NCBI GenBank assembly: GCA_934096235.1
Contig: CAKOLO010000002.1
Coordinates: 301,919 to 365,918, forward strand
From: an uncultured Bacilli bacterium
GTDB lineage: Bacteria; Bacillota_I; Bacilli_A; RF39; UBA660
Direction of reading: 5' to 3'
DNA length: 64,000 nucleotides
The position numbers and the translations under genes are program-made. Of the stretch, positions 2,973 through 57,265 are shown piece by piece (positions within the stretch are counted from its first letter, which is position 1; every line of letters starts with the position of its first letter). Below the pieces are notes generated by a model that saw only the letters and a program-made list of their open reading frames with translations, had not been told where the DNA came from and made no database searches.

Positions 2973-3023
2973 ATTAACCCCATTTTCATCTACAATTATA
3001 ATATTCTATAGATGTAAATACAA

Positions 3024-3311
3024 TTAATTACACATATTTTTACATTTTTTTTGTAAATTTTTATTATTAAAGTATACGAACGTAGATATTGTTATTATAA
3101 TAAAGATTATATTTATTATTCCATTATTTATTAAATAAAATATTTTAAAATATATTAGTGTTATGTTTATCATAAATAATAAACTATTTAAGAAACTATA
3201 AATTTCTTTTTTAGTGTGTATGTAATTATATGTTGCTTGATATAGTTTCTGCACTATTATTCCATATAAAAAAGAAAATATAAAAGAAATTATTTGTTCA
3301 TTTAGGTCCAT
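3024..3311 (-). CDS. YabQ-like small membrane protein (spore cortex biogenesis)
   Basis: 95-aa hydrophobic protein whose stop overlaps the yabP start (3311); the yabP-yabQ arrangement is conserved. Confidence 0.4.
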   Translation of the reverse strand: MDLNEQIISFIFSFLYGIIVQKLYQATYNYIHTKKEIYSFLNSLLFMINITLIYFKIFYLINNGIINIIFIIITISTFVYFNNKNLQKKCKNMCN

Positions 3312-18575: not shown

Positions 18576-18594
18576 ACTTTTCCTCACAAAAAAA

Positions 18595-18664
18595 GTGCAC
18601 ACAGAATAGTGTTTAAGGCTGCTATCTTCCGATTCTGACCTGATTCGCATTCTTTCTGTTGCAC
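18595..18664 (-). ncRNA. ffs: small (4.5S-like, ~70 nt) signal recognition particle RNA
   Basis: Minus strand reads GUGCAACAGAAAGAAUGCGAAUCAGGUCAGAAUCGGAAGAUAGCAGCCUUAAACACUAUUCUGUGUGCAC followed by a U-run. It contains the conserved domain-IV core CAGGUCAG...CGGAAG...AGCAGCC and a closing helix GUGCA../..UGUGCAC. It sits next to tadA and dnaX, as scr does in Bacillus. Ends are approximate. Confidence 0.55.
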
Positions 18665-18711
18665 AAATAAATTATATATTATTTTAAATATTAAATCAAG
18701 TATTTTTATTA

Positions 18712-18727
18712 TGTTCCACGTGGAACA
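18712..18727. promoter_or_regulatory. parS-like site 1 (perfect palindrome TGTTCCACGTGGAACA)
   Basis: Exact 16-bp palindrome matching the Firmicute parS consensus TGTTNCACGTGAAACA; followed by TAATGTTAATAAC. Confidence 0.7.
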
Positions 18728-18997
18728 TAATGTTAATAACTTATATTATCTGCACATTAATAAATTTAATATAATATTTCAATGTTAATTAATTTCAAAT
18801 TAATTTGTTTATAATTATAGTTTATTTATTAAAGTATAAATTATTTTTTTAGTAAAATATTTTATTTATACATTCTTTAATAGTCAAAAATTGTAATATT
18901 ATAAGTTATATGTTTATTATATAATTCTTAAATATAGTTTTAAAGATTTCATTATGCTGTCAATTGCATAATAATTTATATTCATTTACTTATTTTA

Positions 18998-19013
18998 TGT
19001 TCCACGTGGAACA
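18998..19013. promoter_or_regulatory. parS-like site 2
   Basis: Identical 16-mer; followed by TATTGTTAATTAC. Confidence 0.7.
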
Positions 19014-19177
19014 TATTGTTAATTACTTTGAATTATTGTTTATTAATATTCTGTTTTTTCGTTAGCAACTTTACTTTTTATTGAAACATTTTTGTTTAAT
19101 TTTATAATATTTTATTCTGATTATTAAATTTCAATATAAAACCTAATGATAATATATTATTTATTTTAATAAAAAAT

Positions 19178-19193
19178 TGTTCCACGTGGAACA
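19178..19193. promoter_or_regulatory. parS-like site 3
   Basis: Identical 16-mer; followed by TTGTTAATACAAC. Confidence 0.7.
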
Positions 19194-19399
19194 TTGTTAA
19201 TACAACATATTTTGGACTTCTAATAATAATTTTCTTTCTTTCGATTGTTAATATGTTATATACATGTTACTTTATAATTAATATTTTGGATTTATCATTT
19301 TTTCGTGATGCTTTGTTAATAAATTTATCTATTTTTTGACCTTATTATTTTAATATTTCTTCTTTATTTTTTTCTAATATTTTGTTAACTGATTTTTTA

Positions 19400-19415
19400 T
19401 GTTCCACGTGGAACA
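19400..19415. promoter_or_regulatory. parS-like site 4
   Basis: Identical 16-mer; followed by TTGTTAATAACT. Confidence 0.7.
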
Positions 19416-19433
19416 TTGTTAATAACTTTTTTT

Positions 19434-19447
19434 ATTTCCCGGGAAAT
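19434..19447. promoter_or_regulatory. Noc-binding-site (NBS) consensus palindrome ATTTCCCGGGAAAT
   Basis: Exact match to the 14-bp NBS consensus described for B. subtilis Noc. It lies inside a 16-bp perfect palindrome TATTTCCCGGGAAATA flanked by T-runs, 18 bp after parS-4 and 13 bp before parS-5. CCCGGG is otherwise very rare in this ~25% GC sequence. Confidence 0.6.
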
Positions 19448-19460
19448 ATTTTTTTCATTT

Positions 19461-19476
19461 TGTTCCACGTGGAACA
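19461..19476. promoter_or_regulatory. parS-like site 5
   Basis: Identical 16-mer; immediately precedes the A-run/hairpin of the gyrA terminator. Confidence 0.7.
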
Positions 19477-19478
19477 TT

Positions 19479-19504
19479 TAAAAAAAAGAGTAATAAATTA
19501 CTCT
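19479..19504 (-). terminator. Rho-independent terminator of gyrB-gyrA operon
   Basis: Hairpin agagtaa-taaa-ttactct overlapping the gyrA stop codon, followed on the minus strand by an 8-nt T-run. Confidence 0.6.
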
Positions 19505-21930
19505 TCTTCTATAGGATTCACTTCCTTTTCAATTACTGATATTGAAGCAACTTTATTTTTATCTTTTAAATTAATTAATCTTACGCCTTTTGTTACTCTT
19601 CCCATTTGTGAAATACTATTTATATCCATTCTAATAATTATTCCATCTGATGTGATAATCATTAAGTCCTTATCATTATCTGTGGATTTAAATCCTATAA
19701 CATTTCCATTTTTTTCTGTTATATTAATTGTTTTTACACCTTTACTTCCTCTTTTTGTTTCTCTATACTCTTCTATAGCGGTTTTTTTACCATATCCATT
19801 TTCAGTAACAACAAGTAATAATTTTCCAGGTTCTGATATTTCCATTCCTACACATTTATCATTTGATAAATTAATTCCTCTTACACCTGAAGCTGTTCTT
19901 CCCATGATTCTTATTTCTTCTTCACTAAATCTTGCCATTCTTCCGTTTGAAGAACACATTAGTACTTGATCATTACCTGTTGTTTTCTTTACAGATATTA
20001 ATTCATCATCATCTTTTAGTGTAATTGCTATTTTACCACTTTGTCTTATATTATCAAATTCTGATATTAATGTTCTTTTGACTAATCCTTCTTTTGTACT
20101 AAAAAGCAAACATTTGTACGTTTCATTTTCATTTATTCTAATTATTGTATTAATTTTTTCATCCTTTTCTAATGATAATAAGTTAACAATTGGTAGTCCT
20201 TTTGCAGTTCTTGAATATTCAGGAATTTTATATCCTTTTAATCTATATACTTTTCCTTTATTTGAGAAGAATAATATATAGTCATGAGTATTCATTGATA
20301 GTAATTGTTCTACATAATCTTCTTCAGTAGTTGTCATACCTTTTATTCCAACACCACCTCTATTTTGTACTTTATATGTATCTTTTGGTGTTCTCTTAAT
20401 GTAATTTTTATTGGTAATTGTAACAATTATTTCCTCTTGTGGAATCAATGATTCGTCTTCAATATATTCTATTGCACTATTATCAATTTTAGTTCTTCTT
20501 TCATCACCATATTTAGCTTTAATTTCAAGCATTTCTTGTTTGATTATTGCTAATACTTTTTCTTCACTTGCTAATATTGATTTATATTCCTCTATTAATT
20601 TCAAAATATTTGCTAATTCCTCTTCAATTTTTTCTCTTTCTAAGCCAGTTAATCTTCTTAATTTTAATTCTAGAATTGCATCTGCTTGAATTTCGCTAAA
20701 TCCATATTTTTCAATTAATCTTTCTTTAGCTATTGAGTCACTTTGACTTTCTTTTATTATTTTAATAATATCATCTATATGATCTAAAGCAATTTTATAG
20801 CCTTCTAAAATATGTGCTCTTGCTTCAGCTTTTGCTAAATCAAATTTTGTTCTTCTAATTATTATTTCTTTTTGGTAATCAATGTATTTTGAAATAATAT
20901 CTTTAATTCCTAGTGTTCTTGGTTGACCTTGGTCTAACATTAAGAATATAATTCCAAATGTTGATTGTAATTGTGTATGTTTATATAAGTTGTTCAATAC
21001 TACATTAGCATTTGCTTCTTTTTTTAGTGTTACGACTATTTTTATACCATTTTCAATATTTGTTTCTTCGTGATAATCAGCTATTCCTTCTAATACTTTA
21101 TCTCTAACTAGTTCTGCGATTCTATTTTTTAGATCTAATGTATTAACATTATAAGGTATTTCCGTTATTACTATTCTATTTCTATTATTTGTTTCTTCTA
21201 TTTCTGCTTTACATCTTATTGTAATTGTTCCACGACCTGTCTCATAGGCTTTTTTTATTCCACTACTTCCTAAAATAATGCCACCTGTTGGAAAATCAGG
21301 ACCCTTAATATAATTCATCATTTCCATGGTATCTATTTCAGGATTATCTATATAAGCAACACAACCATCTATCACTTCACCTAGATTATGTGGTGGAATA
21401 TTTGTTGCCATTCCGACTGCAATTCCCATTGTTCCATTTACTAAGATGTTTGGGAATCTACTTGGTAATACTACTGGTTCTTTTTCAGTTTCATCAAAAT
21501 TTGGCGTGAAATCAACTGTATCTTTGTTAATATCTCTTAATAATTCTAAACTTACTTTTGCAAGTCTAGCTTCTGTGTAACGCATTGCTGCTGCACCATC
21601 ACCATCCATGTTACCAAAGTTTCCATGTCCGTCAACTAACATATATCTATAACTGAAGTCTTGAGCCATTCTAACCATTGCTTCATATATTGATGAGTCT
21701 CCATGTGGGTGATATTTTCCCATTACATCTCCAACAATTCTTGCACATTTTCTGTGTTGTTTGTCTGGTGTATATCCTGATTCATACATTGAATAAAGTA
21801 TTCTTCTATGAACTGGTTTTAAGCCATCTCTTAAATCTGGAATTGCTCTTGAGACGATAACACTCATTGAATAATCTAAAAATGAATCTTTTACTTCTTT
21901 TATTATATTATTTTGTTCTATCTTATCCAT
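19498..21930 (-). CDS. gyrA: DNA gyrase subunit A
   Basis: 810 aa; AAMRYTE active-site Tyr region, QRF..G.GNFG, C-terminal beta-pinwheel repeats. Confidence 0.95.
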
Positions 21931-25020: not shown

Positions 25021-25060
25021 TAAAAAAAGATAATTTTAATTTTAATTATCTTTTTTTGCT
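25021..25060. terminator. bidirectional hairpin terminator between comK-like and recF
   Basis: aaagataatt-ttaatttt-aattatcttt, a 10-bp stem flanked by an A-run and a T-run. Confidence 0.5.
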
Positions 25061-25497
25061 GTTCTTTCATCTAAAACAAATTTTAATCTTGTGGCTCTAA
25101 GAATTTGATTGGATAATGAGCCATATGATAAATCAAATTCCAAGATATCACCGTTCTTAAATAGAATTGCTGACCTATTATTTTCCAATTTGTAGTATTT
25201 TTCAATTTTTTCCAAATTAATCCATATGCAATCTTCTCTTTCTGGTGATGTTGTAGGAAAAAAAATCATTTTTCTACTTTCTTCTACTATTATTGGTGAT
25301 TTGTGAGTTATTCCGAGCATCTTACGAGTTCCATCTTTTCTTCCTTCAAATGAACTGCCAAAATATTCACAACTGTGTTCTAAAATTTCTTGAACTGAGT
25401 TATTAACTATGTATTCACTATCATGTTCTATTACTTTTGATTTGAACTCATCAATTGGAAGAACTAATTGTGTATCATAGTTTATTTCATAATTCAT
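25042..25497 (-). CDS. ComK-family competence transcription factor-like protein
   Basis: 151 aa; the blocks SCEYFGSSFEGRKDGTRKMLGITHKSPIIV and MIFFPTTSPEREDCIWI and FDLSYGSLSNQILRATRLK align with the conserved ComK core of B. subtilis ComK as I recall it (SCRFFGSSYAGRKAGT..ISHKPPIMV / IFLFPTLSSTRPQCGWI / ISYNSFENQVYRTAWLR). Good RBS AAAGGGGG. Confidence 0.7.
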   Translation of the reverse strand: MNYEINYDTQLVLPIDEFKSKVIEHDSEYIVNNSVQEILEHSCEYFGSSFEGRKDGTRKMLGITHKSPIIVEESRKMIFFPTTSPEREDCIWINLEKIEKYYKLENNRSAILFKNGDILEFDLSYGSLSNQILRATRLKFVLDERTAKKDN

Positions 25498-26731: not shown

Positions 26732-26876
26732 AATAATTTTTTCCTCCTTTTTCTTATTATATATATTATTTATTACTATTATAGAGTGTTAATAATGTTG
26801 ATAACTCATTTAATACTAGGTTTTATCTACGTATTATGTAAACTTATAATTGTTAAGATGTTTATAACTTGTGTGT

Positions 26877-28438: not shown

Positions 28439-28548
28439 TTATCCACAATATCAACAAATTTACAATTTAATTATTTTTTTAATTGTGGATAACTTGTTGA
28501 TAAGTTAACATAATATTGTGGATATAGTGTTGATAAGTTAACATAATA
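28439..28548. promoter_or_regulatory. oriC DnaA-box cluster
   Basis: Perfect DnaA boxes TTATCCACA (28439-28447) and TGTGGATAA (28484-28492); one-mismatch boxes at 28448, 28495, 28517 and 28528; a 20-bp direct repeat GTTGATAAGTTAACATAATA x2. A further one-mismatch box TGTTGATAA at 26796-26804 lies between dnaA and dnaN. Confidence 0.75.
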
Positions 28549-28612: not shown

Positions 28613-30076
28613 ATGAATAAGAAAGAATTGTTAGAAAATTATTTAAAAAAATTATACAAAATATATATTGAAAAAGACTTTAATGAGTTTGTTAATACGA
28701 TACTAAGTTATAACATAAGGATTGGAGATTATAAGAAAGATATTTCATCAATTTCTAAAAAAATTTTTGACGAAATATTGGTTTTACTTCCTGAAAGTAA
28801 GGCGAAATTCTCATATAAAGAATTTACCAATTTTTATAAGATAAATATAATATATAAAGAATATAACGATCCAACGCCTAAAGTCATAATAGATGTTCCG
28901 GTGTTTATAGAAAACTATGAAAAAATAACAAATAATTTAATAAAATTTTTAATAGAAAATAAAATTAATTCTTATATTAAACTACAAAAAGTATCTCAAA
29001 ATGCTTTACTTGAAATTCGCGTTGATAATGAAGCAGAAGCTAAAAAGATAGTTAATCACTTTAAAACAAATAAAGAAATAGTTCAAGAAATAAAATCTAG
29101 GGTAGTTCCATTTTTACCTGAAGATAATCTACTAGGTTTTTCATATGAATATAAACCATATAATTTTAAAAATTTTTATTATGTTTGTTTATATGAATAT
29201 TTTTCAACACTTAAATCTATCGATAATTTAACTTTGGATGGTTTAGTTGCTTACATAGATAATAAATATAAAGTTGAAAGAAGACTAAATAAAAAGAGAA
29301 TGCTATTATCAATTTATAATAGTATTAGGGTTATAAATGAAGAAGATGATATTTATTCTATGTTTAGATATAATTCTGATATGAATATTGGCAGTATAAA
29401 TCCTAATGAGTTTGATTTAAAACTTGATGAAAATAAGATGATATTTTTTGTTAATAAATTGGATGAAAGAATAATTTCATATGGAAGTGAAGAATATTTG
29501 AATTTAGTTTATTCAAAATTTTATGATAATTTTATTAAAAGAGAAGAGAGTTCTACATATTATGGCTATTTTTATAATATTTTTAGTAAAATTTTATCAG
29601 ATGATTACAAAGATATTGATAAATTATTAGATTTTTCTAATATGCAAAAAGATTATATTTATACTTTAATGATGTTAATATCTAGTTTGTTCTTTGCATA
29701 TAAAAAAATGAATTTTTCATTAAATGATGTTTATTCTATATTAAAATATGTGCTATTTAAAAAATATAAACTAGAAATCAAAATAAAATCTTCAGAAGAA
29801 TATGAAGAAAAGAAAAATATATATATTTTTCCATTAAATATTGAATATGGAAATAAAGTCGTTGATTTAAAAGATAAATCTAAAATAACAGTTAAGGAAT
29901 ATTTTAGGCAAAATAAAATTGAGGATACCATTCCTTTAAATTCTCTTGTATATATGAAAGATGGAAAAATATTAAAGGGAGAAGATTTTTTAAGAGATTT
30001 ATATAAATATATTGGTTTATATGATTCATTTGAAGAATTGAGAAATTCACTAATAAGTTTAATAGAATTTAAATAA
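28613..30076 (+). CDS. hypothetical cytoplasmic protein (487 aa, K/Y/N-rich, no recognisable domain)
   Basis: Long uninterrupted ORF with an RBS-like GGAGATATGGG upstream; no TM segment or known motif. Confidence 0.5.
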   Translation: MNKKELLENYLKKLYKIYIEKDFNEFVNTILSYNIRIGDYKKDISSISKKIFDEILVLLPESKAKFSYKEFTNFYKINIIYKEYNDPTPKVIIDVPVFIENYEKITNNLIKFLIENKINSYIKLQKVSQNALLEIRVDNEAEAKKIVNHFKTNKEIVQEIKSRVVPFLPEDNLLGFSYEYKPYNFKNFYYVCLYEYFSTLKSIDNLTLDGLVAYIDNKYKVERRLNKKRMLLSIYNSIRVINEEDDIYSMFRYNSDMNIGSINPNEFDLKLDENKMIFFVNKLDERIISYGSEEYLNLVYSKFYDNFIKREESSTYYGYFYNIFSKILSDDYKDIDKLLDFSNMQKDYIYTLMMLISSLFFAYKKMNFSLNDVYSILKYVLFKKYKLEIKIKSSEEYEEKKNIYIFPLNIEYGNKVVDLKDKSKITVKEYFRQNKIEDTIPLNSLVYMKDGKILKGEDFLRDLYKYIGLYDSFEELRNSLISLIEFK

Positions 30077-36276: not shown

Positions 36277-37509
36277 ATGGACGAGAACAAAGATAAAATT
36301 TATTACATACCAGTTGAAGATATTATACCTAATAGATTTCAACCAAGGCTTGCTTTTGATGAAAAAGAATTAAATGAACTTGCTAATTCTATTATTAAAT
36401 ATGGTGTTATTCAACCTATTGTACTTAGAAGTATTGGTGAAAAATATGAAATAATCGCAGGTGAAAGAAGATATAAAGCTTCATGCATTGCTGGTCTTAA
36501 AAAGATTCCTGCTATTATAAATAATACTGATGATAATACTAGTGCTGAGATAGCTTTACTTGAAAATCTTCAAAGAAAAAATTTATCTGTTATTGAAGAA
36601 GCACAATCATATAAAAAGTTAATGGATAGAGGTTTTACTCAAGAAGATATAGCTATAAAACTTGGTATTAGTCAATCAGCTGTAGCTAATAAAATGAGAC
36701 TTTTAAATTTGCCAAAAGAAGTACAAGATGCTCTTTTATATAATAGAATATCTGAAAGACATGCTAGAAGTTTATTGTCACTTAATAATGAAGATTTACA
36801 AAAAAGTTTGCTACATAGAATTACTAGTGAAAAGTTAACTGTTAGACAAACGGAAGAAGCAGTTAGTGAATTATTAAATAGAGATAAGATTGAAAAAGAA
36901 GAACTACCAAGTGATATTCAAAAATTTTTAAAACCAGAACCAGTGGTTGAAACTAAAGAACAAGTTATCGGTAATAATCCTGTTGAGGAATATTTAGATA
37001 TTAAAGTTCCTGATGTAGTTTCAATTGAACCTGAAACATCTGTTTTAACTGAATATACTGATGATACTCAAATAATAAATCCATTTCAAAATGTTAATTC
37101 AGCTAATGAGGTTCAAAATACTATTAATAGTAATATTGTGTCAAATAATGAAATATCAAGTAATATTGAGACACCATTTATAAGTGAAAATGTTAATAAT
37201 GCTTACAATGAAACTGAAAAAGAAACGGTTAATTTTGTAAAAAATGATGAACCAGCAAATAATACAAATAATACTTACTTCAATCCATATAAGTTTCCAG
37301 ATGAAAAGGAAGAAGTGAAAGAAGAAATAACTGATGAAGATTCTTTATTAAATGAATATGGTGAAGTTAATTTACCAAAAGTAATTAATAAAGTAAGAGA
37401 TTTTGTTAGTAGTTTAGATCAAGTAAGTAGTTTAATTGAAACTAGTGAAGTAGATTTAACTGATAAATACCAAATTATTATTGAAATTAATAAGAACACA
37501 CCTATGTAG
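36277..37509 (+). CDS. noc: ParB-family protein, Noc-like (nucleoid occlusion protein paralogue) with long low-complexity C-terminal extension
   Basis: ParB N-domain (IPNRFQPR, GERRYKA, ENLQRKNL) and HTH (TQEDIAIKLGISQSAVANKMRLLNLP). The ISERHARSLLSL and IPNRFQPR blocks resemble B. subtilis Noc (ITERHARAL, VPNRFQPR) more than Spo0J (GHGR, PNPYQPR), from my recollection of those sequences. Sits immediately after rsmG where noc lies in Bacillus. The ~200-aa N/E-rich C-terminus is unusual. Confidence 0.65.
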   Translation: MDENKDKIYYIPVEDIIPNRFQPRLAFDEKELNELANSIIKYGVIQPIVLRSIGEKYEIIAGERRYKASCIAGLKKIPAIINNTDDNTSAEIALLENLQRKNLSVIEEAQSYKKLMDRGFTQEDIAIKLGISQSAVANKMRLLNLPKEVQDALLYNRISERHARSLLSLNNEDLQKSLLHRITSEKLTVRQTEEAVSELLNRDKIEKEELPSDIQKFLKPEPVVETKEQVIGNNPVEEYLDIKVPDVVSIEPETSVLTEYTDDTQIINPFQNVNSANEVQNTINSNIVSNNEISSNIETPFISENVNNAYNETEKETVNFVKNDEPANNTNNTYFNPYKFPDEKEEVKEEITDEDSLLNEYGEVNLPKVINKVRDFVSSLDQVSSLIETSEVDLTDKYQIIIEINKNTPM

Positions 37510-45628: not shown

Positions 45629-45738
45629 GTACTTGTTAATTTTATAATTTTTACTTGATTTTGTAAAAAAAACAATGTATAATACTCACTGAAGTTATTT
45701 CTATAACTGTTAATTAGTTATGGCGAGGAGGATAAAAT

Positions 45739-50720: not shown

Positions 50721-51306
50721 TTGTTTAATTACAATTATTTTTATTTTTTTAATAAAATATATTGACACATTATAAATTATTTGATAATATATATTTGTCC
50801 AATAGATAATTAAATGTTATATCTATTATATAATGATTTATTTAAGTTTAATTATTTTTATAAACTTATATAATAATATAAATGGTTTAATTATATTAGT
50901 GAAAAAGTCTATAAATTTTTTACTTATTTATATTGGATATAATAATATTATTTTTCAATTATATGTTCTTAATTAGTATTAATTTACTAACTTAATTATG
51001 TATCTATCTTATTAATAATATCTTATATCAAAATAATATAAATAATAAAAATATCTTATTAATTTAAGAAATAGATGTCTTATCTACTAAGGACAAATGT
51101 TATAACGTTGAGAAAGTAAAACTCAAAATGATAAGAAATTATGCTAAATACTGATAATATTTAGAAGTATTTATATTAATTTAAATATTAATATAAATGA
51201 TTCATAATTTATTTTCGGAAACTCGAAACAATCTTGTTTTATCAGAACGGGTTGTTTTTTGTTTGTTTAAGAATGTGAAAAGTGATATTATAATTATGGT
51301 GAATAT

Positions 51307-56750: not shown

Positions 56751-57265
56751 TAAACTCCCTTTAAATATGTAAAATAGTATGGAATATTATAAATTAATTT
56801 TACGGCTTTGGTCGAGTTGAATTTCTCTAATTCCTACCATTAGTTACCTGCAGGCGATTTCTCTTTAAAAGAATTAATCACTTGTTACCATTAATGATCA
56901 CTCGATCACCACTTAGTCCGCACTTCAATCTTTATAATATAGGCATACTAGAGGTTTTCCCAAGCAAACATGTATCACCTTTATTCGCTTTTGCAATTTA
57001 TTTTTCAATCACTATCCCAATAAATCACTCACGACATGTGTTTTCATATTTTCCGATGTGAATTAAGGAATTCAGATATATGCCATTACATCTTATCCTT
57101 AAAACTAAAATTATATATCCACCCCAAACTGGGCGTAAGAAGCGTAATATATAAAGTATCATTTTACACAATTGATGGATTTTTAGCCCCATCTTCTAGT
57201 GGTATGTTTGACTAGTATAATGCTCCATACATCTAGAATTATAGCATATTTTAATGAAAATGTCA

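Follow-up and report, generated by a model that had tools for sequence, protein, structure and literature searches.

Candidate DnaA boxes abut parS sites in the origin region of an uncultured, low-GC gut Bacilli bacterium

The 64-kb stretch of DNA analysed here, called the window throughout, is the origin region of a genome of 25% guanine plus cytosine (GC) from an uncultured gut bacterium. Between gyrA and the gene for the signal recognition particle (SRP) RNA lies a spacer of 829 bp and 17% GC, which bears five centromere sites (parS, the loading sites of ParB) and the motif copies that are the subject of this work. Four of the five parS sites have an asymmetric tail containing the word TGTTAAT. 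It is fairly probable that this tail is a DnaA box, with TTATTAACA as a low-GC lineage variant of the consensus TTATNCACA. Judging by the sequence, DnaA probably docks directly beside the centromere sites in the source bacterium. The best reading of the spacer as a whole is five ParB loading sites, one Noc site and a cluster of DnaA-box-type motifs in a single orientation. Four of these motifs would be boxes abutting parS, and about four to six would be weaker, free-standing and box-like. The case rests on the identity of the motif with boxes in the origin of replication (oriC), on its replacement by canonical boxes in relatives, and on its fixed side, orientation and short gap. Coordinates are collected in Table 1.

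A preliminary description of this DNA, made from the letters alone, had reported a surplus of TGTTAAT on one strand, and this is borne out. Next to five perfect TGTTCCACGTGGAACA palindromes, of which shuffled sequences lead one to expect 0.08, the spacer (18669–19497) holds seven copies of TGTTAAT and one of TGTTAAC. All eight are on the + strand, and the − strand has none. Markov simulation of the spacer without its parS sites predicts 0.54 (order 1) or 0.84 (order 2) copies of TGTTAAT, and 0 of 20,000 runs reach seven. Expressed as density, TGTTAAY is found at ~9.7/kb in the spacer (8 copies) and at ~0.5/kb in the other intergenic DNA of the window (3 copies on both strands in ~6.1 kb, oriC halves excluded), a ~20-fold difference. 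The only other dense spots are the two oriC halves themselves, with 4 copies in 471 bp. The related pattern NWATNMACA has 10 matches in the 829 bp, again in a single orientation, where 1.5–2.1 are expected.

The simplest alternative is chance, with the motif being a frequent word in a spacer of 17% GC. TGTTAAT is somewhat common in the window as a whole (60 copies, 38 expected), and TTATTAACA is common in coding DNA. Against the simulated counts, the restriction to one strand, the comparison with other intergenic DNA and the conservation in relatives described below, the probability of chance is close to nil. The ordinary AT-bias effect, which the preliminary description had raised as a doubt, fails because the motif is 20-fold rarer in other intergenic DNA and no simulation reaches the count. 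Two further copies of TGTTAAT, at 45634 and 45708, lie in the promoter or leader upstream of a small open reading frame (ORF) of ~66 codons and were judged to be background.

TGTTAAT stands beside four of the five parS, always on the side closer to oriC. The gap is 3 nt at parS1 (TAA) and parS2 (TAT), and 1 nt (T) at parS3 and parS4. The fifth site, parS5, is bordered on the right by the gyrA terminator's T-run and hence lacks TGTTAAT. The tail had been described as always on the same side and always immediate; the first part stands, and the gaps disprove the second. Nor is the tail sequence fully shared, since parS1 reads ATGTTAAT and not TTGTTAAT. The proposal of a longer oriented unit is sound: it measures about 28–31 bp and reads AAGTTATTAACA-(A/ATA/TTA)-TGTTCCACGTGGAACA-T on the − strand. 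On the gyrA strand this is AAG-TTATTAACA-(A / ATA / TTA)-TGTTCCACGTGGAACA, with the ACA end toward parS.

The evidence is not equally good for the free-standing copies. Three of the four that had been reported are exact TGTTAAT (18783, 19246 and 19314), while the one at 19383 reads TGTTAAC. By the Markov simulation, the three exact copies alone are marginal (P about 0.02–0.05), and the case for the four as boxes is weak. It was also considered whether these copies are relics of decayed box–parS units (a repeat family at 19314). This was rejected: even the closest 16-mers upstream differ from parS at 9–11 positions, as the null distribution would also give.

What the motif might be becomes apparent on the other strand. 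Read there, the tail "TGTTAATA" is TTATTAACA, one mismatch (position 6, C to A) from the DnaA-box consensus. The spacer between dnaA and dnaN contains a box pair in which TTATTAACA is the second member, followed by trinucleotides; a tandem box pair followed by DnaA-trios (3'-GAT-5', or 5'-TAG) is the basal origin-unwinding arrangement (PMC8287927). The oriC half upstream of dnaA has TTATCAACA and TTATCCACA twice each, as well as ATATCCACA and ATATTAACA, and the type with A at position 6 predominates over consensus boxes. In 29 related species, the box-pair positions are filled interchangeably by TTATCCACA, TTTTCCACA, TTATCAACA, TTATGAACA or TTATTAACA, and TAA repeats follow in all. TTATTAACA is found in these positions 11 times, and in L031 it forms both boxes (L numbers denote individual related loci).

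Over 81 loci, TTATTAACA occurs at 1.02/kb in intergenic DNA flanking dnaA (35 copies) versus 0.02/kb in control intergenic DNA (1 copy), which is ~50-fold; the parS clusters have 0.23/kb. Out of 300 composition-matched permuted 9-mers, none reaches the oriC rate of TTATTAACA. For TTATAAACA near dnaA across the clade the numbers are 0.81/kb versus 0.04/kb in control intergenic DNA. The extended context aAGTTATnnACAa is common to oriC boxes and parS-side boxes. From the enrichment beside dnaA and the interchange in the box pair we infer that TTATTAACA is a genuine DnaA-box variant of this clade. When origins are annotated in Bacilli and Mollicutes-like genomes of very high AT content, words of the TTATTAACA type must then be included among the DnaA boxes; TTATCCACA alone misses most of them.

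A second factor, or a distinct protein site, had been among the options of the preliminary description. It is now the best supported of them, with the motif as a DnaA-box variant. Such a factor could also be a different origin-region protein that reads TGTTAAY/TTAACA in both oriC and the spacer. TGTTAAC is present twice in oriC as ATGTTAACTTATCAACA, in the opposite orientation to the adjacent DnaA box, and the free-standing CAGTTAACA and TAATTAACA are poor DnaA boxes. In L008 and L010, TTAACAA moreover forms a direct repeat on both sides of parS. Relatives, however, have TTATCCACA, TTATTCACA or TTATGCACA at the homologous position, without TTAACA, and in the box pair of the origin-unwinding element TTATTAACA and TTATCCACA are interchangeable. 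With no candidate protein to name, a protein other than DnaA is very unlikely.

Two observations on these words can be recorded separately. The ATGTTAACTTATCAACA copies lie upstream of dnaA, within 28439-28536, beside TTATCCACA and ATATCCACA. The direct repeat has the form gttattaacaa-parS-ttaacaa (L008 12519/13047, L010 12515/13041); in one case it reads TAAACAA, and this variant alters both sides.

Relatives were gathered with a GyrA-based locus search, one genome per species, which gave 80 loci (L007-L086). A plain GyrA protein search had yielded nothing but conspecific clusters (≥98% identity) and no graded relatives, hence the locus search. Nearly all of the 80 loci have a cluster of 2–12 parS right after gyrA, which makes the centromere array a feature of the clade. 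Having so many parS in one short spacer is seemingly uncommon for a chromosome. In some loci the cluster is a tandem array with regular spacing: 9 copies at 126 bp in L047, 11 at ~53 bp in L034, spacings of ~80 bp in L069 and L078, and of 74 bp in L072.

The boxes are found in these relatives too. In the four closest species the gyrA-side flank is aagTTATTAACAa at almost every parS, and TTATTCACA, TTATCAACA, TTATAAACA and TTATTATCA are also seen there; L007–L010 have TTATTCACA and TTATCAACA at the homologous position. The window's spacer was aligned with those of a 3%-diverged strain and two sister species (L005, L008, L010). Both ends are kept, as terminator–parS5–Noc site–box–parS4 and as box–parS1–SRP promoter, and the middle is unalignable. 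The box at the orthologous parS1 is TTATTAACA, TTATCAACA or CTATCAACA, and at parS4 it is TTATTAACA, TTGTTAACA or TTATAAACA.

Taking the species group together with relatives at 90% GyrA identity, TTATNMACA (≤1 mismatch, 0–3 nt away, on exactly one side) is present at 31 of 40 parS. Of these boxes 21 are perfect; random spots in the same clusters qualify in 5.5% of cases, and the opposite flank of parS does so once. Positions 4, 8 and 9 of the box are invariant, and most variation falls on position 5 (N). Among the parS without a box is, at every locus, the one closest to the terminator. Elsewhere, L029 has TTATCCACA-A-parS, and other lineages have TTTTCCACA 6–8 nt off, or TGTGGATAA on the opposite side of parS.

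The same words emerge without a prior motif. An unbiased analysis of 6-mers in the parS flanks of the GyrA-selected set puts TCCACA first (10.7-fold, p = 2e-16), and AGTTAT, TTAACA, TTATCC, TATCCA and ATCAAC also score high, among T-rich words. The ACA end is toward parS in 44 of the 49 boxes that lie no more than 10 nt from one. When the motif is permuted while keeping its ACA end, 0 of 119 versions reach the real number of flanks (25, versus a mean of 3.6) or of species (13, versus 2.5).

Some caution is needed with ACA, as the parS of this clade is in fact an 18-bp palindrome. It has A at −1 in 96% and an enrichment of C at −3 (33%), on both sides, and therefore words ending in ACA at a gap of 1 nt are partly favoured. 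Given ACA at that gap, the preceding letters are TTATNM in 16%, versus 1.95% in the control, which is still 8-fold.

These numbers bear on the idea that ParB itself recognizes the tail. TGTT(AAT) would then be a degenerate outer half of parS, as the preliminary description had suggested, or a flank preference that aids ParB nucleation or spreading. The 18-bp site speaks for this, as do the ACA-A junction, which partly matches the general flank preference, and AACA-T-TGTT, which resembles a junction between two parS. In addition, the ParB of Pseudomonas aeruginosa binds half-parS sites (PMC5961200 and PMC10419367). But the clade's preference is symmetric and stops at −3, while the tail lies on one side and spans 9–12 nt. 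TGTT is all that TGTTAATA has in common with TGTTCCAC, and the CAC core of a GTTCCAC/GTTTCAC half-site is absent. The motif is asymmetric, also stands free, and is found in oriC without parS; relatives have TTATCCACA, which is even less like parS. With the one-sidedness at 31 of 40 sites and the 8-fold excess of TTATNM given ACA, recognition by ParB is highly improbable, and the half-site proposal is not supported.

A further explanation is passive hitch-hiking. A unit of ~30 bp would have spread by unequal crossing-over or gene conversion with only parS being functional, and no second factor would be needed. There is something to this, and duplication of a unit had been one of the original proposals. 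parS1 and parS2 have the unusual 3-nt gap in common, both continue with ACTT beyond the motif, and they are 74% identical over 76 nt. The tandem arrays of L047, L034, L069, L078 and L072 and a segmental duplication in L095 fit as well, and the lineage statistics are modest. Yet parS1–parS2 is the only pair with such extended similarity; the other copies share nothing past about 12 nt of flank. Similarity between copies ends at the box, and the outer DNA is unrelated. Orthologous sites in other species keep the box next to otherwise unalignable spacer. The variation follows DnaA-box degeneracy: substitutions concentrate where the box is degenerate (positions 5 and 6) and leave positions 4, 8 and 9 untouched. 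One genome can hold several legitimate variants (TTATTCACA, TTATCAACA, TTATAAACA, TTATCCACA), unlike the outcome of homogenisation, and the same 9-mer serves in oriC. Duplication probably accounts for part of the pattern, such as parS1 and parS2; hitch-hiking as the full explanation is unlikely.

Several results weigh against reading the tails as DnaA boxes. Only three copies (18731, 19314 and 19417, all TTATTAACA) are within one mismatch of TTATNCACA, and the other five have at least two. TTATTAACA has 24 copies in 64 kb of this 25% GC genome, mostly in coding DNA. A gap of 0, 1 or 3 nt is awkward for a strict two-protein geometry, and repeated units that evolve in concert could look conserved inside one genome. 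Most species of the clade have parS clusters without boxes, and across the clade free-standing boxes are only about 1.5-fold enriched. With GyrA clustered at ≥85% identity (28 clusters), abutting boxes are found in 4 clusters within 3 nt and in 6 within 8 nt, counts that 12 of 119 and 5 of 119 permuted controls also reach. The flavours of oriC boxes and parS-side boxes (A or C at position 6) show no clear covariation over the 16 loci that have both (rho 0.21, p 0.44). Lastly, the 64-kb window has neither a ParA/Soj gene nor a gene for a parS-type ParB, despite five perfect parS. The only ParB-family gene in the window is of the Noc type, so the ParB that reads parS would be encoded elsewhere. 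Given the cluster counts, support at the level of lineages is modest: the arrangement is strong in several lineages, and neither universal nor overwhelming as many independent gains.

A metagenome scan for a box, 0–3 nt and parS (box–N0–3–parS) found at least 120 contigs. The majority of those listed belong to this low-GC clade and have the cluster between gyrA and dnaX. The scan selects on the pattern itself, so only multiplicity within a contig is informative. Among the matches listed, a Noc-binding site (NBS) followed by ATT-TTATCCACA-A-parS is present at 5/5 parS in L089, 4/4 in L182, 4/5 in L087 and 3/3 in L111. In these four, TATTTCCCGGGAAATA-ATT-TTATCCACA-A-TGTTTCACGTGAAACA recurs every 270–420 bp with unrelated DNA in between; counting L196 as well, some relatives listed have this Noc site–TTATCCACA–A–parS module 3–5 times per centromere array. 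Others in the same set, with boxes at 7/8 parS (L095, TTATCCACA among them) and 8/9 parS (L144), show mixed variants in unrelated flanks. A gap of 1 nt is the mode, at 104 of the 188 listed, where 0–3 nt were allowed equally.

Outside the clade, single matches of the composite in high-GC metagenome contigs could be chance hits in a database this large, and were set aside. One contig, L131 (GC 0.59), has gcgagTTATCCACAtTGTTCCACGTGGAACA twice (880-940 and 3015-3075) with TTGAG/CTCAA inverted repeats and an identical 34-nt upstream flank. The copies precede two unrelated genes, one PMT_2-like and one URO-D. L131 may represent a box–parS composite from beyond the clade, and was judged uninformative.

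The window has a module of this type at 19400–19448: parS4–T–TGTTAATAA–7 nt–TATTTCCCGGGAAATA. The last element is identical to the published 16-bp NBS (PMC7383237) and is kept in L007–L010, L012, L059 and L065. The product of the window's ParB-family gene (36277–37509, +) has 410 aa, and its C-terminal half is long and of low complexity. Of the models, Noc fits it best, at 271 bits (below the cutoff, 315), and it has Q173, K179 and R201 of the published Noc specificity code. Beyond the identity of the tail, one can propose a composite of Noc site, DnaA box, 1 nt and parS, array-wide in this uncultured gut Bacilli clade, that couples DnaA to the loading sites of the ParB and Noc clamps. This stronger proposal is tentative, and we consider it rather doubtful.

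If the tails are boxes, domain IV of DnaA would bind those beside parS. As only 0–3 bp separate the 9-bp box from the 16-bp parS, DnaA and a ParB dimer would touch or exclude one another. In the origin-unwinding element a DnaA oligomer grows from the ACA side of the box (PMC8287927), and in the box–parS units it is this side that faces parS. In the model favoured here, the array would serve as an origin-proximal sink and sensor for DnaA, with occupancy tied to the loading of ParB clamps with cytidine triphosphate (ParB–CTP). In one variant DnaA would gate the loading of ParB and SMC, or their sliding toward oriC. In the other, loading of ParB would displace DnaA from weak boxes. In both variants initiation would be coupled to segregation. 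The unit may have spread through local duplication or gene conversion, with selection keeping the box.

The links known between initiation and segregation either join one protein to another (Soj/ParA and DnaA, in Bacillus) or are a matter of loose position (the DnaA boxes of the Caulobacter parS region). In the present spacer the DNA itself seems to carry the link, as an initiator site against nearly every centromere site, in fixed orientation, with a Noc site beside it in some relatives. If the three-part composite is real, DnaA would control the loading of ParB and SMC on the origin side, or ParB would sequester DnaA and release it, and initiation, segregation and nucleoid occlusion would have a direct, DNA-encoded connection. 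It may even substitute for the Soj(ParA)–DnaA route, as the window has no ParA gene beside the Noc-type gene. The composite, at ~30–50 bp, is a simple and testable unit. In the literature searched, neither units of abutting DnaA box and parS nor the three-part module are described; this by itself does not prove novelty.

Table 1 Features of the gyrA–SRP RNA spacer and of the origin region, in window coordinates.
Feature	Position	Strand	Remarks
SRP RNA gene (ffs)	18589–18668	−	followed by tadA, dnaX, ybaB, recR
SRP RNA promoter TTGATT-17-TATAAT	18671..18699	−	12 nt from parS1; kept in L008, L010
parS1	18712..18727		perfect 16-bp palindrome, closest to the SRP RNA promoter; orthologue in L008, L010
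Putative DnaA-box variant TTATTAACA (TGTTAATAA on +)	18731..18739	−	3 nt from parS1; orthologue TTATCAACA in L008, CTATCAACA in L010
Free-standing box-like TAATTAACA (TGTTAATTA on +)	18783..18791	−	two mismatches to TTATNCACA; weak, marginal alone
Free-standing TTATAAACA (TGTTTATAA on +)	18806..18814	−	
parS2	18998..19013		
Box-like TAATTAACA (TGTTAATTA on +)	19017..19025	−	3 nt from parS2; TAATCAACA in strain L005
parS3	19178..19193		
Box-like GTATTAACA (TGTTAATAC on +)	19195..19203	−	1 nt from parS3
Free-standing box-like ATATTAACA (TGTTAATAT on +)	19246..19254	−	same 9-mer in oriC upstream of dnaA
Free-standing exact TTATTAACA (TGTTAATAA on +)	19314..19322	−	
Free-standing CAGTTAACA (TGTTAACTG on +)	19383..19391	−	weak match; AGTTAACA also twice in oriC
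parS4	19400..19415		orthologues in L005, L008, L010
Putative DnaA-box variant TTATTAACA	19417..19425	−	1 nt from parS4; middle of the Noc site–box–parS module
Noc-binding site TATTTCCCGGGAAATA, perfect	19433..19448		7 nt from the parS4 box, between parS4 and parS5
parS5	19461..19476		sole site without a box; directly after the gyrA terminator
gyrA intrinsic terminator, hairpin AGAGTAAT..ATTACTCT + T8	19480..19507	−	read from the sequence; kept in L005, L008, L010
gyrA	19498–21930	−	
Origin-unwinding box pair TTATCAACA-TTATTAACA	26787–26804	−	dnaA–dnaN spacer; then CTA TAA TAG TAA TAA; TTATTAACA is trio-proximal
dnaA	26877–28286	−	
Composite box–parS unit AAGTTATTAACAATGTTCCACGTGGAACAT			31 bp

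The GC skew of the window changes sign at ~28.5 kb, and the spacer is ~9 kb from this switch and oriC. Leftward on the − strand, the genes run dnaA, dnaN, a ComK-like ORF, recF, gyrB and gyrA. The GyrA protein is found identically on human-gut metagenome contigs. Named relatives are Candidatus Coprovivens and Candidatus Onthousia, both Bacilli incertae sedis, and other close relatives are labelled Bacilli, Mollicutes or Tenericutes bacterium.

Two other readings of the tails were rejected. As a promoter, TTGTTA would be the −35 element; there are 17 hits versus 12.1 ± 4.0 in shuffles, and the four tails have no consistent −10. A scan of the spacer finds only the SRP RNA promoter convincing. 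As a terminator on the + strand, parS would be the hairpin and TTGTTAAT the U-tract. parS2 and parS3 are flagged as such, with a poor T-run and no + strand gene upstream. Searching the spacer for structured RNA with Rfam at E ≤ 1 gives the SRP RNA alone.

Some observations on parS stand on their own. The −35 element of the strong SRP RNA promoter is 12 nt downstream of parS1, and ParB there could affect SRP RNA transcription. In relatives, the first parS after gyrA often doubles as the gyrA terminator hairpin. Long perfect palindromes surround parS in L027 (13190), L035, L036, L019, L053, L058 and others, with outer arms that differ per site and remain complementary. At least 6 extra paired positions are seen at 52 of 328 parS, where about 2 are expected; in the window just parS1 has extra pairs, 4 of them.

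The window also contains an ORF of 151 aa between dnaN and recF, within the core origin block (25042-25497, −). It matches ComK in Pfam, has no NCBIfam match, and is kept in conspecific contigs. An ORF of 487 aa beside oriC, between the dnaA upstream region and rpmH (28613-30076, +), has no Pfam or NCBIfam match. An OLE RNA is found at 56763-57244 (−), at 207 bits and over the full length of the model, in this gut lineage of 25% GC. A PGK RNA motif is present at 51072-51164 (+).

Related arrangements are known from several systems. In Caulobacter crescentus, DnaA binds boxes in the parS region (Mera, Kalogeraki & Shapiro 2014, as cited in PMC6399470 and PMC11151105). The likeness is that DnaA sites lie inside an origin-proximal centromere and link initiation to segregation, and that one domain IV serves both ori and parS boxes. 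Here the putative boxes abut single parS at 0–3 nt, in fixed orientation, at 4/5 sites. The host is a low-GC uncultured Bacilli bacterium, the box the variant TTATTAACA, and the module has a Noc site.

The boxes in the DnaA-box clusters of Bacillus subtilis are of the consensus type, whereas here most are weak variants and box and parS form one composite unit. Those clusters are origin-proximal and act synergistically with spo0J, according to Ishikawa 2007 (PMC2533591) and Okumura 2012 (PMC3245932). Like the present cluster, with its 10 NWATNMACA matches ~9 kb from the GC-skew switch, they are in non-coding DNA near but outside oriC; the B. subtilis ones restrain initiation. In the texts consulted, their clusters and parS are presented only as both origin-proximal, not as interleaved (PMC2533591, PMC3245932).

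The origin-unwinding system (PMC8287927) uses the same 9-mers, TTATCAACA and TTATTAACA, and likewise has an adjoining element on the ACA side. In the spacer the neighbour is a ParB palindrome, not trinucleotide repeats or an AT-rich unwinding region, and the origin is at ~28.5 kb.

The half-sites of P. aeruginosa ParB reportedly keep a GTTCCAC/GTTTCAC core, while the motif here shares only TGTT and fits a DnaA box better. What is similar is the presence of short parS-related words near full sites (PMC5961200, PMC10419367).

Vibrio cholerae chromosome II (PMC3688505) and Deinococcus radiodurans cisII/cisMP (PMC7671480) also have an initiator and ParB on the same short DNA, with crosstalk between replication and segregation; on Vibrio chromosome II the two compete (PMC3688505). 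These are plasmid-derived replicons with RctB iterons, or with direct repeats upstream of parAB that are bound by DnaA and ParBs, whereas the spacer is on a main chromosome, with canonical parS and motifs of the DnaA-box type. DnaA sites near a centromere and origin-proximal clusters of boxes were thus already known. What differs here is the unit in which box and parS abut.

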